Shown here piece by piece: positions 1,650 to 31,732 of a stretch of 64,000 bases of DNA (position 1 is its first letter; the number at the start of each line of letters is the position of its first letter). The notes below the pieces were generated by a model. It made no database searches and was not told the origin of the DNA. It saw nothing but the letters and a program-made list of their open reading frames with translations. Made by a program: the position numbers and the translations under genes. This DNA is from Fimicolochytrium jonesii (Eukaryota): the NCBI RefSeq assembly GCF_025526975.1, contig NW_026515680.1, positions 558,001 through 622,000 on the forward strand. Direction: 5' to 3'.

Positions 1650-4631
1650 TTAATCGCAATTCAAGATATCGAACTCTTCGAATGATAGCAACGCTTCTGC
1701 TATCTTACCAAGTAACAATCCATTTGTGTCCCATGTGTACCGTTTCTTATTCTTACGTTTCTCTTTCGTTTTAACAATAATTGGTGCACAAAAATAAGCA
1801 TTGATGATCTTTGCGTATAGGTCCATTCTGTACGTTTTCGGTCGGTGAAACATTTTAAAAGATCTTTGTATGTCTCCAAAAGGTGAGTTACAGACATGCT
1901 CTGGTCTGATTTCCCCTTCGATTGTTAGATTATTGTCCTTGTAAAACTTGTGGACTATTGGGGCGCATTTTATGTCGTGATACAGTTCTTGACCTCGTTC
2001 TAACCTGCCAAAGTTATTTACTGCGTAGACGGTATCCCTGTACGTGTCCCAGTAGATTTCAACAAGGTTTTCAGTAACCACACTTCTAAATAGATTTCTG
2101 AATCTGAATTTTTTAACTTGAAGAATCTGATCGACATCTGCTTGGAGGGCTTCGATCAATCTTTCAAGTCTCTCACACTCTTCTCCTGAGATATCCTTAA
2201 TGTTATGCCATGAGAACATATTGAATCGACTGTCGAAACAGGCGCTTATTAAATGACGTGCATCCTTTTCCAATGCAAAGCATGTTTTGCTGCATAGTTT
2301 GATGTTACATAGATCTGCATACAATTTGAACAGATCCTGTGCCGATTTGTGATGTTTATCCGCGAAACTCTCTGAATCCATATGCGCGGCTAAGGTACGA
2401 AATCCATCGGATTGTGAAACAATCAGTCGATCCTGCTTTACTGCCTTCATGAAAGGTTCCGTAAACAGAATCCATATCTCATTCGAAAGTGGCCTCCGAA
2501 TTCTTGCCAGTAATTGGAAAAAGTCCCGGTACGATATACAAGCCGGATTGAAAATGCCAAAAACCCGGTCAAACGGGCGCATCCCTTCTTTTACATCATA
2601 ATTCACGCCCACCGCTAAAGCAGCGTTTCCAACCACCACTCGCACAGCCGGATTTCCCCATACCTCCTCAATATTTCTCAGATTCTCCTTGTCTTTTTTG
2701 CGATCCGCGTGGATACCAATTATTTCTGTTCCACGTTTCCATTTGTATTTTGCCATTAGCGTCGAAACAATGTTTTCCACCCCATCAAATGCGGAATGAA
2801 CCTTTCGGGAACCTTTTGCTCCCGATGCGATAAAGATCTTTTCCCCTTTATCCAGACTGTTGAACATTTTCGCATAAAGATCTTCTATTTCTTTGCAATA
2901 CTTGATCTCTCGTTGCGGAGGAGGAACACTCGATCCAATAATGAAACTTTCACCTCCAATGTCTCGAATCAAATCGGTTGTCGCTCTAGTAAGAAACCCG
3001 TCCATCCAAATTACCTTCTTTGCTGACGCCAACAGGCGCATGAAATTCTTCCAATGTTGAGATGGGTTACCATGGCATTTTGCATCGTCCGCAAAACTTC
3101 GCAATAACGTTTCGCACTCATCAATGACAATTATATCGTAAACTCCCCTTGCTAAGTAGATCGACTGAATGGAACATACGAGATAGGGATGATGCACTGG
3201 ATTTTGTTTCTCATCGGGTCTGTAATCCAGATAATATTTCCATTGGGTGATGCCTGTTTTTTCCATTCTTCCTCTTTGTTCATTTGTCAACGCAATTCTA
3301 CATGTTGTCCAAAGCGCTGTCAATTCTTTGTCCCCCTCCAATAATTCTTTGAGATAATCAATGGTACTTCCACTTTTGTTACCGCCGAGCGAAACATGCA
3401 ATACAATGTGTTTATAATTGTCACCCAAGTGAAGATCCGCTGAGGATAACCATCTTGAGTCAATGCGATGATTGAACTCTTTGTTTATCGCATTTTCCAT
3501 TACTTTGTATGGCGTCGACTTTAGAATGTTTCCGTTATAAACAGCAACCAAACACGCTTTCATGAAGTTCTCCGAAATGGGCTTCGACTGTACATCCACC
3601 CGATTCCAAAAGTCTATATATTTTGCTTTGCGTTGCGGAGTGCTATCCTTTTTCGAATTCCACTCCCAAAACGACGCAAAGGTGATACCTGCCATCTTAC
3701 ACCAACGACCGATCTCACTGCATAACCAGTTGGACAATTCAAACGTATCCCCACGTTTAGGGTTTGGCATGTGCGCTAGAAAATGCAGCGGATCCCCTCT
3801 ATAGATATCTAGGGTTTCCGGAGGTTCCAAGTTCATTCTCGGTATTTGACCCGGATAGTAGCGACCTTTTCTCGCTTGTACCGAGCCCTCGTCATTTTCT
3901 CGTGTTCTCTTCCGGAGCGCTGGAGCCCCGGTCGATAGAAAGTTTTGAAGTTCGGAAACATTCTTTACGTGGATGCTGTCCTTTGGAATACCATGCATGA
4001 TCGTGTGATCCAAAATGTTATCAGAACCTTCTATTATCTCCTGGACTCGTCCGTCACCTTTGGATTGGTTTACATATTTCATCAAGCCGTTCGCTCTGTA
4101 GATATTCATGTCAAATCCAAGTTCCTTATACATGGCACAAAACTGCTTAATCGGGTCAAGTTCGCCCACATTCAGAACGTGGTAGTTATTCACAACAATG
4201 TGATATGAGAATTTCAGAGTATCGCCCTTTTCCCCCACACTTCCCGAAATATTCATGGAAGCATTCGGAAGAATCGATCGAATCCTTTTTTTTACCTTCT
4301 TAATAGGATCATTCCAAAGATTTCCCGTATAATCAATATCAAACATTAGTTTCATCATTCTATCAGGATGCATAACTTCAAATAGTCCTTTGTCATCTTT
4401 CAGCAAATCCTCCAGTTTAGAGCATTCTACGATCGCATATTGGCAGTACTTTTTCTTCACCATCTCACCTTCCTTTTTTCCCTTTGCTTCATAATCTCAA
4501 ACATGGGCAACGAGGCATTGCTCAGGCCCACATCTCTCCATCAACGTTTCCATAACCTTTTTCGCTGTGTTCCTATTGGTGTAGAATGATAGACCATACT
4601 TATTGATTTTGGTGTAATTTGCAATATCCAT
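1650..4631 (-). CDS. AEP primase-polymerase fused to UL9/origin-binding-protein-like SF2 helicase (937-aa ORF 1650-4463; N-terminal extension from ATG 4631 broken by a frameshift and a TGA)
   Basis: AEP motifs KLMFDIDY, KFSYHIVV and FDMNIYRANG. SF2 motifs SLGGNKS, IVIDECE, WMDGFL, ALAVGVNYD and QLLARIR, the arrangement typical of UL9-like helicases. Confidence 0.8.
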
Positions 4632-4786
4632 TGTGTGTGAATTGGATGTTTAACAGATACATAATTTTTCTGCTTAAATAAACTTTACCTGTCTACATCC
4701 ATTCGACAATCAAATATCATTTCTGACGTTCTCCATCTCAATCGAATAGTTACTGTCGTAATAGTTTCAATTTCAAGGATCGAGTT

Positions 4787-4899
4787 GTTCTCCGATTGGT
4801 GACAAAGTGAAATAAGTTATACGACTTTTACACGTTGTCACCAATCGGAGAACAAGAATGTTCAGTTTGGAAAAAAACGGAAAAATAAATGACGCCTCC
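4787..4899 (-). repeat. Dispersed palindromic repeat copy 2, inverted (core 4787-4853)
   Basis: Reverse complement of the same leader plus core; nearly identical to copy 4. Confidence 0.95.
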
Positions 4900-4959
4900 C
4901 TACACCGCACCATTAGATTTTCGGTTTGGCTGTCAATACGACTATATGGAGTCCAAATG

Positions 4960-5081
4960 GGAGGCGTCATTTATTTTTCCTTTTTTTTCCAACGAGAAAC
5001 GTGTGAGAAGCATTGTTCTCCGCAAGGTGACAAAGTGTAAAAGTCGTATAACTTATTTCACTTTGTCACCAATCGGAGAAC
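4960..5081 (+). repeat. Dispersed palindromic repeat copy 3 (core 5015-5081)
   Basis: Same leader and 67-bp core; sits back-to-back with copy 2. Confidence 0.95.
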
Positions 5082-5132
5082 GATTGGGGCTCGCGGTTAA
5101 ATGGCGTAAAACACTTTATCTCACAACAATAA

Positions 5133-5390
5133 ATGGACGAATTCTACAGAAAACACAATATAAACGAAGAGGAGGTTTCGGCCGAACTTTTCAAGAAGGA
5201 GATAATGGATGAGATTCTTGAAAAATTTGATAAAGGTGAATTGACATACAAAGGGAAAGGGGGTGTAGAATTACAAGTGACTTCTTCTAAACAAGCGTAC
5301 GCAATGGCATGTACGATATCAGATAAAAGGTGGAAAAGGAGGAAGAACAATCAAGAATCAGTGGGGAGTTACTTTCGGAAGATTGCTTAG
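5133..5390 (+). CDS. Small hypothetical viral protein (85 aa)
   Basis: ATG-initiated ORF after an A-rich leader; plausible charged composition; tiles with neighbouring ORFs. Confidence 0.55.
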   Translation: MDEFYRKHNINEEEVSAELFKKEIMDEILEKFDKGELTYKGKGGVELQVTSSKQAYAMACTISDKRWKRRKNNQESVGSYFRKIA

Positions 5391-5572
5391 TCGCTATCAG
5401 CATCCAACTTGAAATCGACCGGTTCCTTTTTCTTCAAATAACATTCATAACAATACGGTCGGTGTTTGATGAACGGAATCGTGGTTGTGCAATTATCCAT
5501 TTTACACTTACGAGTTCCCAGCGGATATATGATTTGACCTGCGGGGTTTCTTTTCGGATAGTACGGACGCAT
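5387..5572 (-). CDS. Small C4 zinc-finger protein, homolog of 27953-28141
   Basis: MRPYYPKRNPAGQIIYPLGTRKCKMDNC...YCYECY aligns with MRPWYPKRSPSGKIINPKGTRQCKTAEC...YCYDCW in element B. Confidence 0.8.
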   Translation of the reverse strand: MRPYYPKRNPAGQIIYPLGTRKCKMDNCTTTIPFIKHRPYCYECYLKKKEPVDFKLDADSD

Positions 5573-5692
5573 CGTTTCTTTGCTTTTCATTGCAATTAGA
5601 CCATCAGAAACGTATCTATTTAAGTTGCATTTTAGCAATCCCGTTTATGACAACTTGAAACGCGTTATGTCACTGAATGTAAATCCATAAAT

Positions 5693-7548: not shown

Positions 7549-9693
7549 TTAGGGGATGTGCTTTAGGATGTACTCGATTGTAGGTACGTTCATAGCGTTT
7601 CCAAGTAATCGCTTTCTACTTTTATCAGGGACAAATGCGGTGTATCCCACGGGAAACCCTTGTAACTTCTCGCGTTCCGAGCAGGTCAAAAGCCTGAATA
7701 CTCCATTTGCAGCGATAGCCAATTCATAACACTCGGTCGCTATGATGGTGTTACTTTTTCCATCGTCCCGAAATTTCACTGTTTGCTCCACCGTGTCCTT
7801 GTTGAACGCGGCAATGAGATCTGGGGGAGGAGGTTGTTTGAAGCATTTCCAATGGAGCGACTTTCCGGAATGATTGGGTTCTACTATACTGTCAATTGTC
7901 GGCGAAGGCACATCCAAAGGTTCCGGAACAAAGAAATTTGTCCAGTATAAACGGATTCGATTTTGTGCACAAAACGACGCGGCATTGAGTTTTTGCACCG
8001 TCGTAGACAAAAGTCCTTTCGAGATCTCCGCAATGCTTGCTGAATCCATAGGAACGTTTTCCATAATCACATATTGGGGTTGACAGTCGTTGCGGATTCT
8101 GACGAATTGTGTATACAAATCCGCCCGAGGATCGGTGAATTTAGTTTTTCCCGGATTGGCAAGCGAAAAAGGTTGACACGGAGGACCTCCGATTAACAGG
8201 TCAAAATCCGGTATGGTATTTGTTTTGATTTTGGTGATGTCTCCAAAGTTTTTATGTCGAGGATGATGCTCAACATAAACTTTTAAAGCGTCTTTATCTG
8301 TCTCGCAAAAGCCAACGCAAATGGCTTCGGGAAAGATTTTTCTTAATGCCATTTCGGCACCACCGATTCCAGCAAAGGCAGAAAAGTACCGCAATGGTCT
8401 TTTCTCGGAAATCTCCAGAATCCTTGGTATGCGCGTATTTAATCCGGGAATAAATCCATGGGTTCGAAAGACCTCGATGAATTTATCTGTATGTGGATAA
8501 TCTGCATCCGAGTCAATATACACGATCGTGCGTGAATAGACATCGTTCGAGATATGTGAATTCTTTGCCGAAAATCGCATGTCGTCCATTCGAACCTTTG
8601 CAGCGGCCGTTTTATCCCACGGGACTTTTCTCGTAAGGTGGCAACAAAGTCCCCGTGCGAGGGCGAACCTGCACCATTTCCGGTATGGACAATTCGGAAT
8701 GATTGCAATGATCCGTTTGATGTTTCCCTTTTTCATTTCCAACATTGTCTTTTCCCAAAAGTCGTTATGGAGGTAAGGTCTTTTCGCAGAAGTTTTCGGA
8801 CCATGTTGTAGAGCGTCGATTGCAGCACCAGGTGCATTAAGATAAACCCAATTGCTTTTTGTCCAATCAGACAACGTCAAAGCGTTGACAAATGTTCCGT
8901 CGACTTGTTCACCGTATACGGTTTTTGCAATGATCTTTGACTCGGGATTCCAGCACGGATCAAGATCAATTTCGCCACAAAATTTGGTGATCAGATTCAC
9001 CAGATATTGGGGCGTAATATACTCGTTTTCGGATCTTCCAAATCCAGTAGATATCGGAATATTCGGTCGTTTGGTAGTCTCCGAATCATCTTCGTCTGAG
9101 GTGTCTTGAGTAACCTCTTTTCGCTTTCTTAATCGGGAACTCCAATCTACTTCGTTCGTATCCCTTTCATTTTCGATCACATCTTCAATCTCTGTATCTT
9201 CATCTATCTCTTCATCTATCTCTGTGCGAGTGGTATCGTCCAACTGGAGACCGGGTTCGCCCGAAAGGTCAATGGCGGAATCGGGTGGTAGGTCTTCAAA
9301 TATTTCATCCATTTTGACCGCAATGACCATTTGACGAGAGCCAAAGTATTGAACCGCCTTTCTCCATATCTCAACATGAGTCAAATTTCGCTCTTTGTGA
9401 AGTTTATCCAACATGAGATAAAGCCCGATAGCGCAGGGCATTTTGTCCCGACCGAGTGTTTTCCCCATTTGAATAATAATTCGTCCGGCGCGGGAAAAGT
9501 TGTAACCGGCCGCTCTCGAAAGTTTCCATCTCGCTTTCAAATAATCGTCCGCTGCAGGATACGAAACCTTGTATAATTTCGCATCCAGTATGTGATGCAA
9601 AGCAATGCAGGTCTTGAGAAACCCGTCTCCGACATCAGGATTGATAATGAAATAAGTTGGGTCGATGTTTGCTTCATGAATGGCGAGAGCCAT
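7549..9693 (-). CDS. DNA methyltransferase fusion: N-terminal helical domain, phage Dam-like N6-adenine MTase domain, C5-cytosine MTase
   Basis: C5 motifs FAGIGG, GGPPCQPFS, MENV, QNRIRLYW, RLLTCSEREKLQGFP and LGNAM. Middle domain EYITPQ...DLDPC...VYLNAPG resembles phage Dam with an altered NPPY motif. Confidence 0.85.
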   Translation of the reverse strand: MALAIHEANIDPTYFIINPDVGDGFLKTCIALHHILDAKLYKVSYPAADDYLKARWKLSRAAGYNFSRAGRIIIQMGKTLGRDKMPCAIGLYLMLDKLHKERNLTHVEIWRKAVQYFGSRQMVIAVKMDEIFEDLPPDSAIDLSGEPGLQLDDTTRTEIDEEIDEDTEIEDVIENERDTNEVDWSSRLRKRKEVTQDTSDEDDSETTKRPNIPISTGFGRSENEYITPQYLVNLITKFCGEIDLDPCWNPESKIIAKTVYGEQVDGTFVNALTLSDWTKSNWVYLNAPGAAIDALQHGPKTSAKRPYLHNDFWEKTMLEMKKGNIKRIIAIIPNCPYRKWCRFALARGLCCHLTRKVPWDKTAAAKVRMDDMRFSAKNSHISNDVYSRTIVYIDSDADYPHTDKFIEVFRTHGFIPGLNTRIPRILEISEKRPLRYFSAFAGIGGAEMALRKIFPEAICVGFCETDKDALKVYVEHHPRHKNFGDITKIKTNTIPDFDLLIGGPPCQPFSLANPGKTKFTDPRADLYTQFVRIRNDCQPQYVIMENVPMDSASIAEISKGLLSTTVQKLNAASFCAQNRIRLYWTNFFVPEPLDVPSPTIDSIVEPNHSGKSLHWKCFKQPPPPDLIAAFNKDTVEQTVKFRDDGKSNTIIATECYELAIAANGVFRLLTCSEREKLQGFPVGYTAFVPDKSRKRLLGNAMNVPTIEYILKHIP

Positions 9694-9790
9694 TTTGTTG
9701 AAGAGTTTTTATGTTTGGACATTCTTGTGGAAATCGGTGGTTCCAAAGGAATGTAGTTGGCGATATTACGTAAACGCGCTTTGACAGGGG

Positions 9791-9903
9791 GGAGGCGTCA
9801 TTTATTTTTCCGTCTTTTTCCAAACTGAACATTCTTGTTCTCCGATTGGTGACAACGTGTAAAAGTCGTATAACTTATTTCACGTTGTCACCAATCGGAG
9901 AAC
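9791..9903 (+). repeat. Dispersed palindromic repeat copy 4 (core 9837-9903)
   Basis: Same leader and core; lies between the MTase start and the capsid gene end. Confidence 0.95.
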
Positions 9904-9970
9904 AACCAGGTGCCATTTGAATCGTTGAAACAAGTCGGGATTTGCTTGATAGAGATGGAGGTTATGCTAA

Positions 9971-11211
9971 TTATACCACACTGACTACATCCCCGATCGC
10001 GAGTGTGACATTTTCAAAGTAAGTGCTGAGAAGTCTGCATCGTTGACTAGGTGCGGGCGACGCATGTACGGTGTGTACTCGAAGTATGGAGTCGGTTCCG
10101 GTGAATGACAAAGCAGCACCGCTGCCTTCGGATTTGTCTTCAAAACCGTAAGAAAACGAGAAATTTGCGGTATCATAGTCTTTGAATGAGATGTCCATAT
10201 CAGCAAGTTGCTCAAAGTCGTTGTTGCTCAGTTGGGAAACAAGAAGCGTTTGACGATCATAAGGCCCGTGAGTAAAACCAGTTAGACCGCTTGGAATTGT
10301 CGCATTTGGTCCTAATTGGAGCCGCCATTCTCTTAGATTTTGAGACGAGAATGATTGTGACTTGTCCTTAGTTTGATCTGCAAGCACATCATCGTCTATA
10401 AATGACATTTCCAATCCGATAAGGGATCTAACGCCTGACATATGTAGGTTGAACGTATTTCTCAAGCCGCCGCTTGCGGCATTTTCTGTTTGAGTGGCGC
10501 GGACATAATCATAGTAGATACTTTTACCATCAGCGATTGCTCTTGTAGCATTAACAACTATAGATGGAGGTGGGGTAACGTACGGAATCAAACAGCGGAT
10601 GTTGCTGATTTGAAGTTCATCAACTACTCCAGCACTTGTAAAAACCGTATTGGGATCCGCAAGTACCAACTCGATGGTCATGGCCTGATTCGGAAGTGCC
10701 CACACGGGCAAAAATTGATCGTTAGTTGGGTGAAAAAATCCCAACCATGGGTGCATGCTAACGCTGGCTGTAGCAGTTCCGCTGAACATATCAGTGGAAC
10801 CATAACCGGTCAGATTTCCAAGTAGTTGTTTATGGCCTTTACTCATATTTCTGTATGCTGTACAAGGTACGCAGGATAATTCGGGATCTGAACAACTGTT
10901 TCGTTACCTGCTTTGACTGTGAGCGATTGTATGATAGATTCGATACCAAGTTTAGTATTAACGATTCCAGACCCAGATACAGGACTGTTATTCTTCAAAG
11001 CCGTGACGTCCATCGAAAGAATCAACTTTTGTAAAATGAACGAGACAGAATTGGAATCGCATTGGATTCTAATAGGTGTCAACTGACGCGTTTTCGTAGA
11101 ATACACATTTTGACCCGAAGGCGAAAAAGTTGCAACCCCTTCGCCACGAGGATCGCTGTACGGGCGGGAGAAAGTTTTCGTAGCAAACAGCCAGTTGTTA
11201 GGTACAGACAT
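9971..11211 (-). pseudogene. Major capsid protein (double jelly-roll, PLV type), frameshifted near 10855
   Basis: Two ORFs (10843-11229 and 9971-10846) are together colinear with the intact 407-aa ORF at 18796-20019 (VPNNW/VPSNW, IRIQCDSNS/IKIVIDSNS, LPNQAMTIEL/LPNQSVELT, DKS...NLREWR/DKS...NLKSWR). Confidence 0.75.
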
Positions 11212-11237
11212 GTTTACTAATAAGTACAAAAAAAAAA

Positions 11238-11723
11238 CTAGCCATAAATTCCACCGTAATAATCGTAGCCATCATCGTCGTCGTAGTCGGTGTCAAACTC
11301 AACATATTCAGTTTCTTGACTTGGTTTTGACCGAATTGCAGTCGGTTCATTAGGTGGAACTTTGATTGAACGTGCCCGTTTAGCGGTTTGTAATGTTTGC
11401 GGCTTTAATTTAGCCTTTTCCTCTTTTGCCAATTTCTTTGCGAGTTTCTCCTTTTCAAGAAGTTTTTTCGCTTCTTGGATCTTTCTATCTTCGTTTTCCT
11501 TTTTCTTCATAGCGGACAATTCTTGCAAGTTTTTTTTCCGTGTGGCGACGGCTTTCTTTAAAGCCGCTTCCTGTGCGGGTGTTCTTTGTTTTTTAGGTTT
11601 TAACTCTGGCTTTGGTGAAGGTGGTCGAATCTCCGGTATTGAATCTTGTACAGATTCTTGTACCGTTTCAGTATTGGCAGGAGAATCGGCAGAGGCACTC
11701 GAATGATTTGGATCTTCGCTCAT
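11238..11723 (-). CDS. Conserved coiled-coil viral protein, homolog of 20075-20554
   Basis: KKQRTPAQ motif, K/E-rich helix, C-terminal YVEFD...YYGGIYG, all matching the element B copy; syntenic. Confidence 0.8.
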   Translation of the reverse strand: MSEDPNHSSASADSPANTETVQESVQDSIPEIRPPSPKPELKPKKQRTPAQEAALKKAVATRKKNLQELSAMKKKENEDRKIQEAKKLLEKEKLAKKLAKEEKAKLKPQTLQTAKRARSIKVPPNEPTAIRSKPSQETEYVEFDTDYDDDDGYDYYGGIYG

Positions 11724-11777
11724 TTAACACGAGTTTTTATAAAGAAAACAAAATATTTAAGAGGAACATAGGTGCGG

Positions 11778-12500
11778 TCAGAGATCGTCTACATCGTCTA
11801 GAATGGCGAATCTGACACTTAAAGGAGAATTCAATGATACTTCTGTTCCGGTAAGGGAATTGATAAGATGAAACTCGACTTGAGATATGGTCTGTCCAAC
11901 GGGAAGAAACTCGCCTGAATTTTCATATTGTACAATGTCCCCAAAACTATCAGGTACGATACTGCAACAGATTGATTGAGCGCTGTCGTTATAATCTAAC
12001 AAGATACTGGGTGCCTTTGCATTGAATGTTGGAAGTCAAAATGACAGGATATGAACCGCTTAAATTGACTAGGATTCTTCATCTCGTGAGAGGAACCGAA
12101 TCCAATATCAGCTCGACGGGACATTCCCATAAGAATATAGGCTGTTGACCCACGATTGCCAGGAAAGTATCTTGAAAGAAACAGAGTTGCTATTTACCGT
12201 TAACTTGCGTCTAACACCATCGAATGTAGCAGAGTATACATTAGAGCCAGCCGCGCTATTCATAGCGGTGGAAACAGCGTTTGGGAAGTCAACGATCGAG
12301 TAATTACCATTTGGGATCTTTGCGTACAAGATGGTATCCGAACCTTGTTGGGCAAATGCAATAGTGTCATTCACGTTACTTTCAACCAGGTCCCAATCTT
12401 GAAGGAAAGAGACGCTCAGTATTTTGAAAGCCTCAATCCGTCTAGGTTGGATGTTGTATGTACGTTGGGAGACACTAGAGTATAAAATTTCTGAATACAT
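11778..12500 (-). pseudogene. Minor capsid (penton) protein, about three frameshifts
   Basis: Fragments colinear with 20587-21336 (IPNGNYS/LPEGTYD, FDGVRRKLTV/YDGVTRRLTV, VPDSFGDIV/NPDSYGDIL). Alternative frames restore GNRGSTAY and VNLSGSYPVILTS. Confidence 0.75.
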
Positions 12501-12523
12501 TTAGTAATAAGGTAAGAGAATTA

Positions 12524-13232
12524 ATGTCTTACAAACCGAAACCGATCTTCCCAAAGAAAAACGAGGTTCGAAACAAAATCATTCCGATCGACATTCAGGC
12601 TCCTCCCATATGTAGTACACTTATCGCACCGCGCAAAAGTGGGAAATCCGCTCTTGTATGTGGATTGATCGAAGACGTTTATGCAAAAGTGTTTGACAGA
12701 GTGATAATAATGTCAGATACAGTCTTGTACGATAAGAGTATAAAACAATTGGCACAGAGCACTAAGCACAGGAACATCTTTTTCACAGACGAAGTGAATA
12801 ATACAATGATAGCCGAGATTCTGGAAGATCAAAAGTTGCTGGCGGAAAGTGGGAAATCTTTGCTGTTGTATATTGACGACGCTGGAGACAATGCTCAAGG
12901 GAAGGAGTTAAACAAAGAGTTATCTAAACTTTATACGAAAGGACGACACTTTCTCTGCTCCACCATGGTGTGCATCCAGTCCGTGAGCGGTCAACTGACT
13001 CGAAAGATGAAGAACAACACAACAGAGTTCATAATCTTTAAAAATAATTCGGAGGATATGGAATCTTTGGCGAAATTATTGACAAGTGCGTTTAAAACAA
13101 AAAAGAAGTTCTATCGTATCTTACGGAAAGCACAAGGAGCCGTATTCGTTTGCATATGTGAATTTGGCAGCGGATGATGCGCGAACGATGTACCGGTATT
13201 GCGACAAAGACGGGTTTCACGACTTTTTTTAA
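12524..13232 (+). CDS. A32/FtsK-HerA family packaging ATPase (C-terminus frameshifted)
   Basis: Walker A APRKSGKS, Walker B LYIDD, KGRHF motif, CIQS. Another frame gives EPYSFAYVNL...FF* ending at 13232. Confidence 0.85.
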
Positions 13233-13253
13233 ATTGTTGGTTTTTGAATAGAA

Positions 13254-13463
13254 ATGTTCTATATACCAGAAATTGTAACAAAGGAAACGTATGACACCGT
13301 ATTAGCAGCGCTTTCGCAAGATCGCCTTTGGTTAGACGTTAACGAAAACTCCAGAAAAGAAATACTCGAATCCTTACAGAAGGAAATGGCAGAAGCATTG
13401 GTACAGAAGATTTTAGACGACCAGGTAAAACCAAAAGTCACTAGGCGGAAAAAGACCGCTTGA
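13254..13463 (+). CDS. Small conserved viral protein, homolog of 22137-22376
   Basis: FYIPE..TKETYD..L..LSQDRLWLD and a basic tail, shared with element B. Confidence 0.8.
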   Translation: MFYIPEIVTKETYDTVLAALSQDRLWLDVNENSRKEILESLQKEMAEALVQKILDDQVKPKVTRRKKTA

Positions 13464-13720
13464 AGATTTCCGTCCCGAATATGACGAAAAACTATTCTAC
13501 GAGTTGAGCAACAAAGACTTCCGCGCGACCAAACTCCTGAGCCATTTTATTATTTTGGGTTGTGCATTTTCAGGCTTTTTCGAATCTTTGCCTATATAGC
13601 ATGACCTCTTTACTGAGCGCTCATGCCCGAGAAAAAGATTCAGGTGTTTTATCAATTTTTACCGAACAATGACAAAAATGACCAGAAACTGATTAAATTT
13701 CTGGTCAATAAGCAAAGATC
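13464..13720 (+). promoter_or_regulatory. Conserved non-coding block upstream of the integrase (element A copy)
   Basis: Aligns at nucleotide level with 22377-22655, including identical CTTCCGCGCGACCAAACTCCTGA; hairpin at 13679-13707. Confidence 0.6.
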
Positions 13721-15022
13721 AATGACTCCGCCGTTAACCCCGGAGCAAGAAGGGAAACTGAAAGCATTATTCTATGAAGGACGAAACTTCTATGGACGCG
13801 ATCGTCTATATTTCATGTTGCGGAAAGATCCGCAAAATAACATATCTCGAAGACAAGTAATGAACTGGCTATCGAGACAACCGATAGCACAGAAATTCAG
13901 GAGACCCGTTCGAGCGACTGGTGTACGTGCAATAGTTTCTACCTCATTAGGATCATTTCAATGTGATACAATGGATATGTCAAGCGATTCTTACAGAGGG
14001 TTTAGTGCGGTTTTCAGTATGATTGACACATTTTCAAGAAAACTCTACGGAAAAGCGATAAAGGGAAGACAGCAGCGGAATGCACAAGGGCACTACGCGA
14101 GATTATAAGGGAGAATCCCAATATGACATTCACGCGTTTAGTAAGTGACAATGGGGGCGAATTTGCAAACGTGTTTGACCAGTACTTAGAAAGTATCAAT
14201 GTTCCACATTTTACAACACGTCCACATCAGCCATGGTCGAATGGAATAATCGAGCGATCTAATGCATCTGTTCGTAAACAGATCTCCATATTCATGGAAA
14301 CAACAGGGAACAAGGACTGGGTAACGGCACTGCCCGGATTGATAGATTCGTTGAATTCCACTTTCAATTCAACTACGCGCAAATCACCGGATGAAATAGA
14401 GGAATCTGCTCCAGATTCTGCGACTCATTCAGAAGCGGGTGGTAATATTTTGCGTCGTGCGGCAAAAAGTGTGAATGTTCGTGGAGCAACAACTTTGAAG
14501 GTTGGAGAAACGGTGAGAAAGGTGTTTCCATATTCTGGAACAAACATTAAGAAACCAAGCAGGACAGGATACTTTGCACCGGAACTATACACAATCGCAG
14601 GTGTGGTGGCATCACCATATGAAAATCAATTACCATCCTACAAACTTAAAAGTCAAGATGGGACGATCGAGAAAGGACTTTTTGCAAGATCGCAATTATT
14701 GCTTGTACCTACACCTGACCAGCGTATCGAACGCCCACGGACTGTAGAGAATCTTGAACCACCGGATGATGGACAGGGTGAAGAGGACGAGGAAGAGGAA
14801 GCGATTCAACCCCCTCCCAGGCGGTCGGGGAGATTAAACAAAGACGTAGAATATGAAGTGGAATATATTGCAGATAAACGAACAAGAAAAGTAGGCAAAA
14901 GGACTATAGTCGAATATTTAGTAAAATATCGTAATTATCCATTAAGTCAATCGACATGGGAGCCAAGATCTAATATCAATGCTCCGGGTCTCCTGCGGGA
15001 GTTTGAGAGGAACCGGCGGTAG
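13721..15022 (+). pseudogene. Retroviral-type (rve, DDE) integrase with C-terminal chromodomain; frameshift near 14063
   Basis: FQCDTMD, VSDNGGEF and NGIIERSN form the DDE triad. Chromodomain EYEVEYIADKR...YLVKYRNY...STWEP. The second frame continues KTAAECTRAL. Confidence 0.85.
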
Positions 15023-16997: not shown

Positions 16998-17067
16998 TCC
17001 GTTAGATCTTGTAAATAGTGTTTTGAATAAGATATGGTCTTCATTGGATTGATGAAGGTGCGGGTGG

Positions 17068-17390
17068 GGAGGCGTCATTTAATTTCCCTCTTTTTTCCAA
17101 GAGGAACGGAGAGAAACGTGTGAGAGCATTGTTGTTCTCCGAAAGGTGACAACGTGTAAAAGTCGTATGACTTATTTCACTTTGTCACCTTGCGGAGAAC
17201 AACTGGGTAGAATGTGACTGTAGCAGAAACGAAAGAGTGAATGGAGGGGTGGGTGGGGAGGCGTCATTTATTTTCCCTCTTTTTTCCAAGAGGAACGGAG
17301 AGAAACGTGTGAGAAGCATTCTTGTTCTCCGAAAGGTGACAACGTGTAAAAGTCGTATAACTTATTTCACTTTGTCACCAATCGGAGAAC
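17068..17390 (+). repeat. Palindromic repeat copies 5 and 6 in tandem (cores 17134-17200 and 17324-17390)
   Basis: Two ~190-bp tandem units, each with the GGAGGCGTCATTT leader and the 67-bp core. Confidence 0.95.
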
Positions 17391-17708
17391 AACTAGGTAG
17401 ATTTGACGTTAACAAAAACGAATAAGTGAATGAAGAGGTGGATATAGAGGGACGATGTGAAGAAAGTGTCTACGGCTGTGGACGGAGGCGAAGGTTAAGT
17501 TAAAGAGGTTTGAGAGGAATGGCGGCGGTCATGAGCGGAATGGAGGGAACGCGTGACGGATTGACGGTTGACAGGACAGCGGCGGAATGACAGAAGATGA
17601 CGCAATGTGACTCGAAATGAATGGAGAGAAGTCATGTGCCGTCACGTGATTCGATGTCGTGAAGGGAGATGTTTAAATGTTGAATAAGGTGATATGTGAC
17701 AATTCTTT

Positions 17709-17837
17709 TACTATGGGATCCGGCAGAGCAGTTTCGAACTATGGGTCAGTCCATTCTCTACTATGGGAGTCTTCTTTTTTACTATAGGATCTGTCACAGT
17801 CCACCCTATGGTATATACCATAGGGTGGACTGTGACA
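17709..17837. repeat. Right terminus of element A: ACTATGGG iterons plus perfect 46-bp palindrome (17792-17837)
   Basis: TGTCACAGTCCACCCTATGGTAT|ATACCATAGGGTGGACTGTGACA, preceded by four ACTAT(G/A)GG motifs. Confidence 0.9.
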
Positions 17838-18795: not shown

Positions 18796-20019
18796 TTATA
18801 CGATATCGACGGTTGCCCCCACAAGGATGGTGCGTTGTGAATAGACGGTTGTTTGCAATGAAACGGCGGTACTCGGGGAGGGTAAATTATGTGTCGTAAT
18901 TAGATGTACGTTTCCGGAGCCTCCGAGTAGGTTCAAAGCGCTACTGGAATCTTCATCTGCGCTTTGCCACGAATAACGCATCACAAACTGTTTGTTGTAA
19001 AAGTTATCGAGGTCCAGGTCTTCAGAGGCGTATGATGTGTTGTCGTTCATGGAGAGGTTGCCTATCATAACCGTATCTTCTACCTGGAAATCTTCGGTTA
19101 AAGGTAATCTATATTGTCCTATCTGGTAACGCCATGACTTTAAGTTGGCTGTATCATAAATCAAACTTTTGTCCCCTGATGTAGTGGCGTATTTATCATC
19201 AGATCGAAATCTGTGCGTTAAACCGACGATCCGACCGTTTGTGAGTGGGAGGATGAAGTTGTTCTGTGACGCACCACTACATACATTGGAGAGTTGTTGA
19301 ACACCTACTACATCCATTTCGAGATACTTCCCTGCCCAAATTCCGGACCACAATGCGGACATATAAGCGGCACTCGGGGTCACAAGTTGTGCTACATAAC
19401 GAAGATTTGAAACTTCAAAGTATACTCCGGAACCTACATTGGTGAAGGCCTGCTGCGGTGTGTTTAAAGTGAATGTTAATTCCACCGATTGATTCGGCAA
19501 AATCGCTAGTGGAATCGGGTTTCCGTTCAAATTTCTCATGGACCCTGCTAACAAATGGTGTTTGAATGTGAAAGTTCCGTTGGGATTTTTGAACGCATCC
19601 GGGTTACCTGCTCCTTCGTTATATTTTAGGTATTTTCGTTTCTCTGCCTCCACAAACTGGAGAGTGTCTGCAACAAAACTTGGCATATCTTCAATTTCGT
19701 CAACAACTTTTCCGCCAAACTTCACATTCATCGTTCGGAAGCAAGCCATTGCACCAATTTCAGAAATCTGCGCATCCGTGACGGGGCTGCCATCAGCGTT
19801 TTTCACAGTAATTGTTCCCCATAGATACGAACGTTGAGGTCTCAAAAAGGAACTATTGGAATCAATTACGATTTTTATAGCATTTCCAGGTGATTTTGAA
19901 CTAAACGTCTCCTTGATTGGGCGATAAATCGCAATATTTTCGCTGAGAGCGTCTGAATGCATCGAAAATTGTCTAGAACTATAGATCCAGTTTGAAGGAA
20001 CAACGGGATTTGTTGACAT
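18796..20019 (-). CDS. Major capsid protein (double jelly-roll, PLV type)
   Basis: 407 aa, beta-rich; FLRPQRSYLWGTI, VKFGGKVVDEI and IPLAILPNQSVELTFTL resemble PLV/virophage MCPs; clustered with penton and ATPase. Confidence 0.8.
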   Translation of the reverse strand: MSTNPVVPSNWIYSSRQFSMHSDALSENIAIYRPIKETFSSKSPGNAIKIVIDSNSSFLRPQRSYLWGTITVKNADGSPVTDAQISEIGAMACFRTMNVKFGGKVVDEIEDMPSFVADTLQFVEAEKRKYLKYNEGAGNPDAFKNPNGTFTFKHHLLAGSMRNLNGNPIPLAILPNQSVELTFTLNTPQQAFTNVGSGVYFEVSNLRYVAQLVTPSAAYMSALWSGIWAGKYLEMDVVGVQQLSNVCSGASQNNFILPLTNGRIVGLTHRFRSDDKYATTSGDKSLIYDTANLKSWRYQIGQYRLPLTEDFQVEDTVMIGNLSMNDNTSYASEDLDLDNFYNKQFVMRYSWQSADEDSSSALNLLGGSGNVHLITTHNLPSPSTAVSLQTTVYSQRTILVGATVDIV

Positions 20020-21391: not shown

Positions 21392-22126
21392 ATGAGAATT
21401 GCTAAACCAAAAATTCCTTCCGAATATCAGATACACATAAAGGACAAGACGCCCGATGACTATCCGAAGAAATTCTTCACTTTGACTCTAGTCGGGAGTT
21501 CAAGAGCAGGGAAGACCACCTGTATTATCAATCTCATCCAGAATTGTGCAAAAGCGTATGAAAATGTTGTGGTTTTCTCTCCAAGCGCTGACTCGCCGGA
21601 ATGGACAAGTTTGAAGAAATGCGATAACGTGTACATGTCCAGCATAGTATCGAATCACGTACTGAACAACCTTTTCGAGAAGCAGAAACTACTTTATAAA
21701 CAAGATAAATCCAAAAATCATATGCTGTTAATTTTGGATGATTTTGGTATCCTTGCGAAAGAAAACGGCCCCGGTATTGGAAAGGAACCTAAAGAACCCG
21801 AACTGATATCGAGCGGTATAAGACAGATGTTAGACTTACTGTACTCCAGGGCGAGACATAATGGGATGTCGGTTCTCTGTTCTCTTCATGACACGAAACA
21901 ACTCACACCGTTACAAAGAGTGAATTCCACCCATTGGATTTTGTACAGATTGAACCAAAAGCAATACGAAAAGATTGCGGGTGAGATTCGCTGTCATTTG
22001 TCCGAGTCGGAGTTTGTAAATTTAGCAGAGAAATACACTGTCAATCCTTACCACGCGCTATATGTTGATTTAAAGTCAGAGACAAACGAAGGAGTCTTTA
22101 AACAATTACAACCAGAAACGCATTAA
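21392..22126 (+). CDS. A32/FtsK-HerA packaging ATPase
   Basis: Walker A GSSRAGKT, Walker B LILDDF, RARHNG motif. Confidence 0.9.
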   Translation: MRIAKPKIPSEYQIHIKDKTPDDYPKKFFTLTLVGSSRAGKTTCIINLIQNCAKAYENVVVFSPSADSPEWTSLKKCDNVYMSSIVSNHVLNNLFEKQKLLYKQDKSKNHMLLILDDFGILAKENGPGIGKEPKEPELISSGIRQMLDLLYSRARHNGMSVLCSLHDTKQLTPLQRVNSTHWILYRLNQKQYEKIAGEIRCHLSESEFVNLAEKYTVNPYHALYVDLKSETNEGVFKQLQPETH

Positions 22127-22136
22127 AGAAAAAATT

Positions 22137-22376
22137 GTGGACTTAAAGTATAAGATGTTTGATAACATTTTCTATTTGCCAAATTCGCTAACCAAAGAAT
22201 CGTTTGACAAACTTCTAGAAGAACTATCACAGGATAGGCTTTGGTTAGACATGCCGGAGGACGTAAGGACGAGAACTTTACAGCAATGTAAGGAAGAAAT
22301 AGTTGTGAATATCGTTCAGTCGCATTTGGACAAGCAAGTTCCAGTTAAAACTCCAAGAAGAAAAAAGGCCGCCTGA
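22137..22376 (+). CDS. Small conserved viral protein (likely ATG at 22155)
   Basis: LSQDRLWLD motif shared with 13254-13463. Confidence 0.8.
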   Translation: MDLKYKMFDNIFYLPNSLTKESFDKLLEELSQDRLWLDMPEDVRTRTLQQCKEEIVVNIVQSHLDKQVPVKTPRRKKAA

Positions 22377-22655
22377 AGATTTCCCAGTTTTTTCGTCCCA
22401 AATATGACGTAAAACTATTTTCCTGCAAGTTAAGCAACAAAGACATCTTCCGCGCGACCAAACTCCTGAACAATTAGTGCCATTTTACTATTTGGGTTGT
22501 GCTTTTTCAGGTTGATTCGGGCTTTACCTATACAGTTTGACTTCTTAATTGACTGCATCAAGCCCAAGAAACAGGCCCAGGTGTTTTTATCAATTTCACC
22601 CAAAAATGACAAAAATTGACCATAACATTAATTTGTGGTCAATTGATAAACAAAG
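22377..22655 (+). promoter_or_regulatory. Conserved non-coding block upstream of the integrase (element B copy)
   Basis: Homologous to 13464-13720; hairpin at 22614-22644. Confidence 0.6.
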
Positions 22656-23894
22656 ATGGACTCCGACAACACAGGAACCTCCTCTCTCAGATATGAGCCC
22701 ATCACTCCGGAGGATCTCCGGAACCTCACCAAGTTTTACTATCAGAATCAAAACTTTCTAGGACGAGACAAATTGTGGTATGCGTATAGAAAAGCATTTC
22801 CAAATAGCAGGATTTCACAAAGAACTCTTCTCAACGATTTTCTGAAGAAGCAAGAGATTTGGCAGAGATCTACAAAAGTTATGGGATCCCGAGGCTCGAT
22901 AAAACCGATTTTGGCCGGAAAAGAAGGAAATTACCAGATCGATTGTATAAATTTGACATCGATAGCATACAATGGATATAAGTATTCGGTCAACGCTTCA
23001 GACATCCTCACTAAAAAGGTGTATAGTATGGCGATGAAGTCACAAGATCAAGCCACTGTTGTCAAGTTTCTAGGAACAATGAAACGGGATGGCGCTGTGC
23101 TAGTAAGTTTTACATCCGATGTAGGTACGGAATTTCAAGGTCAGGTGCAAGAGTGGGCCGACTCGAATAACGTGGAGTGGAAGTTCGGACAACCCGGTGT
23201 CCCCCAAGGACAAGGACAGATTGAATCCGTTAACAAAAATATAAAAAATCTGATCTATTCCTCGATACGTTTCGGAAAACGGGATTGGCCAAATTATCTT
23301 CAAAAACTCATAGATAATTTAAACAACACGAAAACGTATGCGACAGGGAAGGCTTCAAACGAAATCTTACAAGATGAACATGAAGCCATTTTCGATCGCA
23401 TACGGAACAAGAAATTGAAAGGGGTGAAATCAACAGTTTTGAACGAATTTAAAGTGGGAGATGTTGTAAGAAAGATAATACCGTTACCAAGTGGTATTAA
23501 AAGGCGCGCAAAAGTTGGATATTTCTCGTCACAAACTTATAAAATTGCAGGGAAAGTGCAAAGTAACTATGCAGGTTATGTTTCATCGTATAAATTAAAC
23601 AGAATGGATGGAACAAGACTTCCTGGTTTAACATCTGCTAACGACCTTCGGCTAGTTCCATCAGGAACCGTCAACGTACCGAACATCGCTTCCCAGCCAG
23701 ATCCCAATGAAAACGATGAATGCGAAATCGATTCAATCCTTGATAGTAGAGTAGTACGTAGAGGCAACAGAAGGATAAAGCAGTACAAGGTTCTATGGAG
23801 TGGTTATGATGCGTCCCAATCAACTTGGGAAGATGAAGGGAATCTCGAAAATGCACGGGAGGCCATAGCCCAGTATGAAGAGCAAAATGGATAA
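22656..23894 (+). CDS. rve (DDE) integrase with C-terminal chromodomain, intact
   Basis: YQIDCI, FTSDVGTEF and QGQIESVNK; chromodomain EIDSILDSR...YKVLWSGY...STWEDEGNL. Confidence 0.9.
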   Translation: MDSDNTGTSSLRYEPITPEDLRNLTKFYYQNQNFLGRDKLWYAYRKAFPNSRISQRTLLNDFLKKQEIWQRSTKVMGSRGSIKPILAGKEGNYQIDCINLTSIAYNGYKYSVNASDILTKKVYSMAMKSQDQATVVKFLGTMKRDGAVLVSFTSDVGTEFQGQVQEWADSNNVEWKFGQPGVPQGQGQIESVNKNIKNLIYSSIRFGKRDWPNYLQKLIDNLNNTKTYATGKASNEILQDEHEAIFDRIRNKKLKGVKSTVLNEFKVGDVVRKIIPLPSGIKRRAKVGYFSSQTYKIAGKVQSNYAGYVSSYKLNRMDGTRLPGLTSANDLRLVPSGTVNVPNIASQPDPNENDECEIDSILDSRVVRRGNRRIKQYKVLWSGYDASQSTWEDEGNLENAREAIAQYEEQNG

Positions 23895-25179: not shown

Positions 25180-25490
25180 AAACACCCACCCCCAAACAAA
25201 ACTTTAATCAGTACAGAACCACCCCCACTTCCCCGAGTATGATCATGCAGAATCGCCCACACCTGCGCCGTCTATTCAGCCGAAACCACCCCCGCGGCAA
25301 GGTTACTAAAATTAAGCATTCACCCACATGCGGAGTGAGTAAAAATGGTACAGAAACAAATCACCCCCTAGAGGGGGTGATTTGACTCTTCTCGAAACAA
25401 AATACGGGGGGTGTTTCCATTCCATAACTGAGCAATGCAAGCGGGGGTGTTTTCTACCTCCCGTTTTCCAATGCCCGCGGGGGCGTTTCC
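25180..25490. promoter_or_regulatory. Symmetric cluster of ACCCCC/GGGGGTG motifs around a 26-bp palindrome (25358-25383); candidate origin or divergent promoter
   Basis: AAATCACCCCCT-AG-AGGGGGTGATTT, with CACCCCC motifs on the left and GGGGG(T/C)GTTT motifs on the right. Confidence 0.55.
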
Positions 25491-25548: not shown

Positions 25549-27873
25549 GTGAGGTTGCGGATGTTGTTCTTTCCCGTTTGCGGAAAGGAAAACTGCCACG
25601 AAAAAATATATAAGGGTAAAAAAATGTTTGTTTCCCCTCAAAAAATTTCAAACAGTTCCTCACTCTTAACAACTATTGCACACAACCGCTTTCGCCATAA
25701 CTTTCAACAAACGCACGTTCTCAACATGCAAAAACGCCAAAACACCATGGAATTGGCTCCGAAGCGCATCAAAATAGCCAAACGTACCGTCCAAAGGGCT
25801 GAACCGGGCTCTTTGGATGTGATCAATAACGAAGTGAATCGCAATGAAGACCATATCGATCTCTCAGTTGCGTTGGACTTGGACAATATATTCGATATCG
25901 ATCCTATGAATTTGAGCATCGAGCCATTGGATTCTCATTCGACTCAAAACACTCCGACGATCAACAAGCCCGATCTCGTTGGCTTGCAGATGGATGTCAA
26001 TCAAAATGAAAACGTCATGATTGACAACCAAACCGATGTCAATAACGATCATCCCCAGGAACGTCTGGAAGATGTGCCTGACCGAATCCTTCCGGGCACT
26101 CAAACGGTTATAATTGACGACATTCAGATCGATAACCCCAAGGAACTTGCAGAAAATATGCAGACGGAAGAAGTTCCGGGTTTGAACATTGAAGACATCA
26201 AACCTGAAGCAATTACTGTTACCAGCACCGCAGTTGTTGTTCATAAAGAAAATCCGGATTCTTCGAATCATGATATATCCTTGTGTGATTGTAGAGGATG
26301 TACCAAATGTCGATTATACGCGAATTTCGCTTACGCTTTGAGAGTATACAAGGAGCCGAAATCCGGGGATCAATGGATAACCCATGCTGCGGACTTCTTC
26401 GAATTTGATTATGGACATCTCATCCGCTTGGGCGACAAAAAGGGCTTCTTGCGATGTAATCCCTCGACGCGAACGAATATATGCTTGAACAAAATCGCCT
26501 TCACAGCCTACGTCGCCCAAGAATTGTTCGATATGTTCAATGCGGTCGATCAGAATGCAACCCCGGGAGCGAAGAACGAGATTACCCAAAAATGCAAGAA
26601 AGTGGTTGACATCCTATACGGCCGGATGCAGTTAAAGAAGGCTGAGGATCCAGTACCTCCTGTAGACAATAGCCATCTGATCGCTTTCAGAAACGGCTAT
26701 GTCTACGACCGAAATATTGGTGAATCTCGAAAGCGCATTGATGAGGATGGTGAAATTGAAACGTTCAACTACGATCTTGTCGAGTGGGATACCGAGAAAT
26801 ATCCCACACAGCGGTACTTGTGGGATGCCATATGCAAAATATGGCCTGAGAATTCCGATCGCTATTATGCGCTCACCAGTCTCAGTACATTCTTGGGAAG
26901 CAGACGCGGTATCCGTGAATTGCTTATATTTCACGGGGAAAGTTCCAATGGCAAAAGTTTGATTGGAGGATTGATGAAACTTATAACATGTCATCGCTTT
27001 CTGGGAGCAACCGCGCAGACGTTACAAAGGAAACCTGGGAACGGAAATGAACCATCTGAGATTCACTGGAAAATGGGCCAAAAATCAACACTCGTCACTT
27101 GGTTTTCTGAAGGGGATGAGAAAGATTTATATTACGGTTCAGCAATCAAAATCGCTGTCGGAGGCGATTCTACTTCTGTCCGGAGGGGTCATAACAAATG
27201 TGAGCAGGTTACGGTAGAGGGATTGGTGATTCTCGCTACGAATCATTACCCTTATTTGGATTGCGGACTGTATGATAAGGATCACAAGGACATCACAGCC
27301 AAATTGGTGGTGATACCTTGCAAATCGACGTTCGTCGATGCAGATGAACATTTTGACCCGAGTCAAAATATATATTTGAAGGACTTCGAACTCGACCGTC
27401 TCATCCAAAACGCAAGTCCGGACTTGGCGAGTGCCATGATGGCACTAATGATTTCGTTTCACAACGATCATCTGCTAGAGAAAGAATATCCGATACTGAG
27501 AAAACCCGCATCAGTGGTTTCAGCGACTGAGGAATTAATCACGAGAGTACACCCGTATCGCACGTTCCTGAAGGAAATGTGTGTCATTGAAGAAGGCGCG
27601 AAAATGTCGCAATGCGTGGCAATTCAAACTCTACGAACATGGATGAAGGAGCATCCGGTATGGTACAAATCCGTACCTCGGACCCAGGATTTCAAGGGTT
27701 TTCTGCTACACGCATACGATAAGACAGTTACTTTCGGCCAAAACATACGAATAAACGGAGTACAGACAACCGGATATCACGGGGTCAGATTGAAGAACGA
27801 GGATAATGATGGAGGTTATAATAAGTTTCTGTTTGGCAGTATCGACATCCTTGCGAGAGGCATTGAAGAGTAG
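25549..27873 (+). CDS. D5-like SF3 helicase lacking a recognisable primase domain (likely ATG near 25726)
   Basis: Acidic disordered N-terminus, CDCRGCTKC, D5_N-like LIAFRNGYVYD, Walker A GESSNGKS, FSEGD, ILATNH. Confidence 0.8.
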   Translation: MRLRMLFFPVCGKENCHEKIYKGKKMFVSPQKISNSSSLLTTIAHNRFRHNFQQTHVLNMQKRQNTMELAPKRIKIAKRTVQRAEPGSLDVINNEVNRNEDHIDLSVALDLDNIFDIDPMNLSIEPLDSHSTQNTPTINKPDLVGLQMDVNQNENVMIDNQTDVNNDHPQERLEDVPDRILPGTQTVIIDDIQIDNPKELAENMQTEEVPGLNIEDIKPEAITVTSTAVVVHKENPDSSNHDISLCDCRGCTKCRLYANFAYALRVYKEPKSGDQWITHAADFFEFDYGHLIRLGDKKGFLRCNPSTRTNICLNKIAFTAYVAQELFDMFNAVDQNATPGAKNEITQKCKKVVDILYGRMQLKKAEDPVPPVDNSHLIAFRNGYVYDRNIGESRKRIDEDGEIETFNYDLVEWDTEKYPTQRYLWDAICKIWPENSDRYYALTSLSTFLGSRRGIRELLIFHGESSNGKSLIGGLMKLITCHRFLGATAQTLQRKPGNGNEPSEIHWKMGQKSTLVTWFSEGDEKDLYYGSAIKIAVGGDSTSVRRGHNKCEQVTVEGLVILATNHYPYLDCGLYDKDHKDITAKLVVIPCKSTFVDADEHFDPSQNIYLKDFELDRLIQNASPDLASAMMALMISFHNDHLLEKEYPILRKPASVVSATEELITRVHPYRTFLKEMCVIEEGAKMSQCVAIQTLRTWMKEHPVWYKSVPRTQDFKGFLLHAYDKTVTFGQNIRINGVQTTGYHGVRLKNEDNDGGYNKFLFGSIDILARGIEE

Positions 27874-27952
27874 TTCCAGATATTTGCGTTACAATTGTAA
27901 ATAAGTAAATAGTTCCTTGTACATATCAATTTGAATAAATTTCAAAGAAACA

Positions 27953-28141
27953 ATGCGTCCTTGGTATCCAAAGCGGTCTCCTTCGGGCAAAATTATTAAC
28001 CCGAAAGGAACTCGACAATGCAAGACCGCTGAATGCCAATCAGAACCTATTCCCTACATCAAAAATCGGCTATACTGCTACGATTGTTGGGTCAAGTCAA
28101 AGGAACCTAAAGGCTTCAAGATAGAATTCGATTTGGATTGA
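27953..28141 (+). CDS. Small C4 zinc-finger protein
   Basis: Homolog of 5387-5572. Confidence 0.8.
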   Translation: MRPWYPKRSPSGKIINPKGTRQCKTAECQSEPIPYIKNRLYCYDCWVKSKEPKGFKIEFDLD

Positions 28142-31158: not shown

Positions 31159-31159
31159 G

Positions 31160-31713: not shown

Positions 31714-31732
31714 TTTCCCAAATTGCGGAAGG

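Follow-up and report, generated by a model that had tools for sequence, protein, structure and literature searches.

A conserved non-coding stretch of 260-280 bases fills the gap between the stop codon of a small ORF and the start codon of the integrase gene in two viral gene clusters, here called virus A and virus B, of the window (the whole stretch of 64,000 nucleotides that was analysed). This block very probably forms a real plus-strand RNA structure, and it is probably a new structured viral RNA. We tentatively propose that it is an undescribed, IRES-like intergenic RNA element that drives or couples translation of the integrase, a role that we regard as quite possible without calling it probable. 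No description of this element was found in the literature searched.

The two viruses and their conserved intergenic block

Across bases 1-32000 of the window the GC content is about 42%, versus about 52% for the remainder, where the translations read as eukaryotic housekeeping-like proteins. The low-GC part holds two clusters, each composed of capsid, ATPase, small ORF, rve-chromodomain integrase and a recombinase-like ORF, and it also contains helicase, primase-helicase and methylase genes. In virus A, a packaging ATPase-like gene (12524-13177, plus strand), which aligns with the A32-type ATPase of virus B, is followed on the same strand by the small ORF (13254-13463; 69 aa, basic C-terminus, no Pfam family) and by the rve-chromodomain integrase (13722-15022), which is spread over two frames (13722-14108 and 14123-15022); the major capsid protein gene, also in two frames, lies on the minus strand (9971-11211). 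In virus B, the A32-type packaging ATPase (21392-22126; Pfam Pox_A32, E 2.7e-8), the small ORF (22155-22376; 73 aa) and the intact integrase of 412 aa (22656-23894) are all on the plus strand, and the likely double-jelly-roll major capsid protein gene is on the minus strand (18796-20019). The capsid assignment is likely; it draws on proteins of Preplasmiviricota and Nucleocytoviricota that resemble it in their features, at a low recognition score (1967). Names are carried by 8 of the 13 capsid relatives, all of them from chytrid genomes (Geranomyces, Gaertneriomyces, Phlyctochytrium and Powellomyces), and a relative of the small ORF is annotated in Fimicolochytrium, likewise a chytrid genome. 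With a likely double-jelly-roll capsid, an A32 ATPase, an integrase and replication genes of their own, A and B are likely Polinton-like viruses, and their host is likely a chytrid or similar fungus. From zoosporic fungi, giant viruses and integrases of Polinton-like type have been reported, and the accessible part of that report does not mention promoters (PMC13533422). The endogenous Polinton-like viruses of chytrids are alike in capsid, A32 ATPase and rve-chromo integrase, but the literature searches turned up no comparable conserved intergenic RNA for them.

Several other features of the viral part were observed. In virus A (9971-15022) the capsid, minor-capsid and integrase genes are each frame-split while their counterparts in B are intact, reflecting either decay or assembly indels. 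A repeat family of about 120 bp (1497-1623, 4784-4900, 4958-5092, 9789-9914, 17066-17211 and 17255-17401), built of a short conserved head and a 70-bp imperfect palindrome, likely represents element ends or origins. Two of its members, 4784-4900 and 9790-9906, are inverted copies of each other (98%) and flank a 500-aa, a 99-aa and a methylase gene; a gene for a herpes UL9-like origin-binding helicase (1650-4463) sits between two members. An ORF of 714 aa (7549-9693) has a C5 cytosine methylase domain at its C-terminus, preceded by a long N-terminal part with no assigned domain. Near-perfect palindromes occur at 17792-17837 (46 bp), 25357-25384 (28 bp) and 31915-31965 (51 bp), the first and last of which may be the borders of virus B. 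At the virus-host boundary, a 245-bp unit is repeated in tandem (31159-31722) and contains inverted repeats of G/C tracts nested within it. Virus B further carries tandem primase/helicase-like ORFs (25561-27873 and 28465-31158, with D5 domains in the second), and a short coding-like segment at about 27930-28145, overlapping a small HTH-like ORF (28078-28359), shares 56-68% amino acid identity with 5384-5597 (tblastx).

Copy A of the block spans 13458-13721 on the plus strand: it takes in the last codon and stop codon of the small ORF and ends one base short of the integrase ATG, which is at 13722. Copy B spans 22371-22658, extending through the integrase ATG. The stop-to-start distances are 258 (13464-13721) and 279 (22377-22655), both multiples of three, so that the small ORF and the integrase are in the same frame; neither a bypass nor a splice explanation was found for this spacing. 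When the window was compared with itself by blastn, 13449-13719 matched 22362-22657 with 75% identity over 303 columns (E 7e-47), and this was the only match between the capsid/ATPase/integrase clusters of the two viruses. In a hand-set alignment 84% of the block is identical (216 of 256 aligned columns, with 13 indel events), and its global nucleotide identity is 0.76 (0.51 when shuffled). The six paired genes reach 0.51-0.57, close to the value for shuffled sequence; for the small ORF directly upstream it is 0.62. Conservation of the block well beyond the genes, as proposed in the original prediction, is thereby confirmed. The neighbouring genes share 29-48% protein identity and their silent sites are saturated; at four-fold third positions of the flanking genes, matches were 2/8, 6/25, 4/13 and 8/35, which equals chance. 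At the protein level the small ORFs agree in 33/69 residues, versus 60/208 for the ATPase and 36/116 and 94/262 for the integrase. Measured over segments of 40 nt, the identity rises from about 0.6 to 0.93 at the stop codon of the small ORF and returns to 0.6 at the integrase start, the similarity beginning within the final codons of the small ORF (13449/22362). The 5' half of the block is near-invariant (9/117 changes, vs 31/139 in the 3' half). AUG positions are conserved inside it at 13481/22404 and, out of frame and a little ahead of the terminal hairpin described below, at 13669/22606.

The predicted fold and its support

The plus-strand model has 50 pairs and was derived from helices possible in both copies and from folding of the pair. 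Its first helix, of 9 bp, is predicted between 13458-13466 and 13567-13575 (in B 22371-22379 and 22504-22512; pair probability 0.87 in both copies); it covers the TGA of the small ORF and shows two one-sided changes that keep the pairing. Two small invariant hairpins are predicted at 13471-13486 and 13490-13505, the second only weakly predicted (probability A 0.31, B 0.0), together with an invariant 8-bp helix with two G-U pairs (13523-13530 with 13558-13565; probability 0.91/0.96), whose loop holds a 9-nt insertion of B. A predicted 6-bp helix (13582-13587 with 13636-13641; in B 22519-22524 with 22573-22578) has three double-sided changes and one one-sided change in the hand-set alignment and two double-sided changes in a MAFFT alignment. 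It encloses a predicted 6-bp hairpin stem at 13599-13626 (B 22535-22563) with one double-sided and one one-sided change. Downstream, a 4-bp helix is predicted at 13643-13663 (G-U in A, G-C in B), and the terminal hairpin at 13679-13707 (B 22617-22641) has 9 shared pairs and a probability of 0.97 in both copies. The five identical blocks, the small CGTC/GACG stem and both terminal hairpins that had been described before were all recovered, and the change from G-C to U-G in the last hairpin is real.

Two further pairings are candidate pseudoknots. The first, PKII-like, joins 13531-13538 to 13642-13649 through 7 pairs and one U-U mismatch; since it is invariant it has no covariation support, it follows the preceding helix directly, leaving no linker between them, and it competes with the alternative helix at 13643-13663, which has a one-sided change. 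The second, PKIII-like, consists of 4 bp between 13572-13575 and 13590-13593 with one double-sided change (C-G in A, U-A in B), crosses the best-covarying 6-bp helix (13582-13587/13636-13641) and has its 5' strand in common with the stop-codon helix. Strand 13567-13575 has three alternative partners, namely the stop-codon strand, loop 13536-13540 and 13590-13593. The long-range helices, the likely pseudoknots, the stop-codon helix and a blockless relative (see below) go beyond the original prediction, whose proposal of a structured RNA is supported by covariation between two sequences.

In helices of at least 6 bp, we counted 5 double-sided changes in 3 disjoint helices, a result matched by 0/150 random-position and 2/150 fixed-position nulls; this covariation evidence comes from two sequences only. 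With shorter minimum lengths the totals of double changes were matched by 1-8 of 150 nulls, the number of covarying helices was not above the null at a minimum of 4 bp (39/150, 46/150) or 5 bp (39/150, 16/150), and 7-15 of 150 fixed-position nulls contain one helix that has 3 double changes. One gap of the hand-set alignment was placed by hand. In the unedited MAFFT alignment, leaving aside the terminal hairpin, 4 of 41 pairs are changed on both sides (slid controls 0-1), and 26 of 500 shuffles of its two rows equal the observed pair counts. The consensus fold reaches -52.7 kcal/mol on the plus strand vs -37.8 on the minus strand, and 6 of 10 variable pairs are G-U in one copy and fail on the minus strand, the model having been chosen on the plus strand. 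Single-sequence folding of the plus strand is unremarkable (z -1.54 and -1.84); on the minus strand A gives the best score of all (z -3.06) and B gives -0.11. The two best-covarying helices have a probability of 0.01 in B folded alone, which prefers another pairing. In a search of Rfam, which had been recommended, no ribozyme or stabilising-element family matched the block at E up to 10, and the matches included no IRES family.

Coding potential does not account for the conservation. No frame is open in both copies on either strand, and a minus-strand ORF of 60 aa that had been put forward fails as a gene: it begins with TTG, contains five single-base indels, and its 29 substitutions are spread 7/13/9 over codon positions 1/2/3. 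Codon-periodic substitution, named beforehand as the observation that would speak against a structured RNA, was thus looked for and no third-position bias appeared. Some indels of the block could stem from decay or assembly error, given the split genes in virus A, but the substitution pattern in this ORF is independent of both.

Distribution of the block and its proposed control of the integrase

The stop-to-start span, the two conserved AUGs and the position of the block in a slot where the genes of a relative overlap point to translation control on a shared mRNA. AUGs inside the block would hinder scanning from an upstream cap. We suggest that the small ORF and the integrase would be carried on one mRNA and that the plus-strand transcript would fold into a multi-helix, probably pseudoknotted RNA. 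Its 5' two-thirds may form nested pseudoknots and bind the ribosome, and the terminal hairpin may position the integrase AUG, with ribosomes starting the integrase internally as on an intergenic IRES. Both integrases open with an AUG that aligns with the first Met of their relatives. Because strand 13567-13575 has three possible partners, the first helix would be opened by ribosomes that terminate on the small ORF, and the RNA could then change to another fold; judging from this anatomy one might speculate that such a switch couples integrase output to translation of the small ORF.

Collecting homologues, as the original prediction had advised, yielded no third copy of the block in any search made. 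Three DNA pattern scans of viral contigs returned 14, 53 and 2 loci, and prokaryote genomes gave another 14; all 83 proved to be chance matches by blastn, nhmmer or covariance model. The block was present in none of 33 loci of integrase relatives with flanking DNA (5 viral, 28 metagenome), a set in which L023 is the only close relative with a small ORF, six loci have fewer than 320 bases upstream and three are marginal matches. Searches of phage records with the block and the small ORF gave no match. For the small ORF, one scan gave 3 short matches of 21 residues, alignment-based scans (also made for the capsid) gave none, and neither the prokaryote genomes nor the protein atlas contained a match. 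Among 7 protein-library matches to it, P0010 and P0016 were dropped as repeat artefacts and P0014 as unrelated. Homologues of the small ORF of B are P0011, P0012, P0013 (C-terminal part), P0015 and L023; in these other five small-ORF homologues the protein continues beyond the basic motif that ends it in A and B.

L023, whose small-ORF homologue was recognised with an hhalign probability of 95.9, is without the block: its small ORF runs to 920, beyond the integrase ATG at 901, and this overlap suggests translational coupling in the slot that is held by the block elsewhere. The gene before its small ORF (1-592) encodes what we take to be a phage tail-fibre chaperone-type C-terminal domain, at the place where A and B have the ATPase. 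The L023 integrase is 46% identical to the N-terminus of that of B (60/130), versus 35/113 between B and A, and a tree built from 11 integrase rows (N-terminal part) joins B to L023 and P0001-P0004 and sets A, which is on a long branch, outside this group (93/92, unstarred). Since the integrase of B is closer to blockless L023 than to A, the block follows the small ORF and not the integrase. It is an optional feature linked to the small ORF, and is likely an exchanged module.

That the block follows the small ORF would be expected just as much of an element at the 3' end of the small-ORF mRNA. The same fold might serve the ATPase/small-ORF mRNA at its 3' end or in its processing, the integrase then being made from a separate or processed RNA; we consider this unlikely, though it deserves serious attention. 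Such an element could be a knot that blocks nucleases, a stabilising triple helix or a self-cleaving ribozyme of no known class. The near-invariance of the 5' half recalls catalytic cores, U-runs in 13643-13678 face an A-run, and the strand order of 13572-13641 is reminiscent of HDV-like ribozymes. Self-cleaving ribozymes of this kind stand ahead of retroelement ORFs, and the block is similar in being a compact nested-pseudoknot RNA beside a mobility gene. However, it is much longer, neither an HDV-like P3/L3 nor the core motifs of group I/II introns were seen by eye, and the Rfam result given above extends to ribozymes and stabilising elements. The similarity of the two copies, moreover, reaches as far as the integrase start codon.

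Comparison with type 6 IRESs and further alternatives

According to the accessible parts of the literature, type 6 (dicistrovirus intergenic) IRESs are defined by a PKI before a non-AUG codon, a PKII with L1.1 motifs and, in most subtypes, a PKIII (PMC10275262, PMC12221177, 10.1101/2024.04.17.590008, PMC10516663). The same partial sources describe a helix P1.1 that overlaps or adjoins the upstream stop codon in type 6d (PMC10275262), and lengths of up to ~260 nt as well as movement between viruses (10.1101/2024.04.17.590008). Like them, the block lies between two ORFs, adjoining the stop codon of the first and with the second in frame. Its first helix likewise covers the upstream stop codon, it ends in a hairpin 11-14 nt ahead of the first codon, and its length is within the range published in the part of the source just cited. 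Six of its helices can be threaded as two nested PKII/PKIII-like pseudoknots in the order of domains 1-2, in both copies and on the plus strand only. The full layout arose in 0/1000 and 0/500 column shuffles, and the domain 2 part alone in 3/1000 and 8/500. The template, whose detailed strand order is in part our assumption, was fitted after the fact: an initial run yielded no such arrangement, and a lower score floor and a shifted homopolymer gap were needed. As it was fitted after the sequence had been seen, the threading indicates that the helices are mutually compatible and is not proof of an IRES.

The loop of the terminal hairpin could pair weakly with 13717-13721 in A and 22655-22658 in B. 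This candidate PKI-like pairing would have 5 bp in A (-5.9 kcal/mol) and 4 bp in B (-4.0 kcal/mol), with a G-C/C-G swap, and the codon after it lies in the integrase frame in both copies. Measured against the anticodon geometry of PKI, however, its strand is on the wrong, 5' side of the loop. The block also differs from type 6 IRESs in having an AUG start in place of a non-AUG first codon, in its occurrence in a dsDNA virus before an integrase rather than a capsid gene, in an extra segment of 30 nt before the last hairpin, and in giving no match to an Rfam IRES. The L1.1 motifs, SLIV (AUUU) hairpin/loop and SLV (CAGCC) loop of types 6a/6b are absent, and shuffled sequences were as good in 119/120 and 93/120 cases for the 6a motif chain and in 95/120 and 113/120 for 6b. 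In loop motifs the block is closest to the nedicistrovirus-like types 6d/6g. The 6d/6g chain (AUAUACG, GnCAGG, UACUACUCAG, CAGAGAA) occurs in the right order and at the same places in both copies with 6 edits, but 8/120 and 7/120 shuffles were as good for 6d and 7/120 and 3/120 for 6g-1, which is not significant with six motif sets tried, and the 6d motifs fall outside the internal loops of the model. Five block motifs were compared with the accessible supplements of PMC12221177; one of them was found 3 times, in type 6f rows, the two inspected being otherwise unlike the block. We do not file the block as a type 6 IRES, and suggest with reserve that it may work like an intergenic IRES. A more specific reading, in which it is a factor-independent IRES of the dicistrovirus type, acquired from an RNA virus or the product of parallel evolution, swapped as a module between lineages and switched by termination on the upstream ORF to control the integrase, appears distinctly unlikely. 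The accessible parts of the type 6 IRES literature list these elements from RNA viruses only, and the literature searches gave no report of one in a DNA virus.

It is improbable that the block acts as DNA, be it as promoter or enhancer of the integrase, as the recombinase or host-factor site that had been offered as an alternative to RNA, or as a fold of displaced ssDNA. TGAC occurs 5 and 6 times in the two copies against about 2 expected, a recombinase-like ORF (so labelled from gene layout; no Pfam match) comes after the integrase, and an 8-bp helix near 13647-13677 is fully paired on the minus strand only. Yet the TGACC-GGTCA half-sites of the terminal inverted repeat are 19 bp apart in A and 15 bp in B, a difference of 4 bp, where a tyrosine-recombinase crossover site would have half-sites at a fixed spacing. 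Long-range compensatory pairs would be unexpected in a duplex-DNA site and, together with variable G-U pairs, favour RNA. AAAATTGA, the giant-virus early promoter motif, is found at 22612 in B and its counterpart AAAAATGA at 13674 in A; it is exact in one copy only and stands before no other gene among 23 upstream regions. A short promoter could overlap the last 60 bases of the block.

Slightly more doubtful still is the absence of any special function: the block would then be the decayed remnant of a small gene, or sequence that two viruses in the same host have recently exchanged, and its covariation would be chance. Module exchange is evident from the incongruent gene relationships, the comparison involves two sequences only, and in virus A with its split genes some indels may be decay or assembly error. 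Against this, the block edges coincide with a stop and a start codon, the proposed minus-strand ORF has no third-position bias, and the covariation in helices of at least 6 bp was rarely reached by the nulls (0/150, 2/150). Of 40 substitutions, 15 are located in modelled pairs and none breaks one, the helices having been chosen as paired in both copies.

Least probable is a stand-alone viral non-coding RNA between genes after the manner of adenovirus VA RNA: adenoviruses are distant kin of Polinton-like viruses, and size, structure and optional presence would suit such an RNA, but the plus strand has 6 (A) and 5 (B) runs of at least 4 T, including T5-T6, which would stop Pol III, no conserved A/B box was seen by eye, and the outer helix draws on coding sequence at the end of the small ORF and covers its stop codon. 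With these T-runs, a Pol III RNA is not supported. Stop-codon readthrough and -1 frameshifting were discarded with no conserved continuation in any frame, a spliceosomal intron with no donor common to A and B, and a SECIS element by its wrong spacing.

In Polinton-like viruses, the expression of tightly packed genes and the control of the integrase are little known. An element of ~260 nt with defined helices, which we tentatively take to control integrase translation, is directly testable by reporter assays, structure probing and toeprinting. If the dicistrovirus-type reading were true, the presence of a type 6 IRES in a dsDNA virus of fungi would be relevant to the origin of such IRESs; if the block is not an IRES, it would still be a structured viral RNA absent from Rfam.
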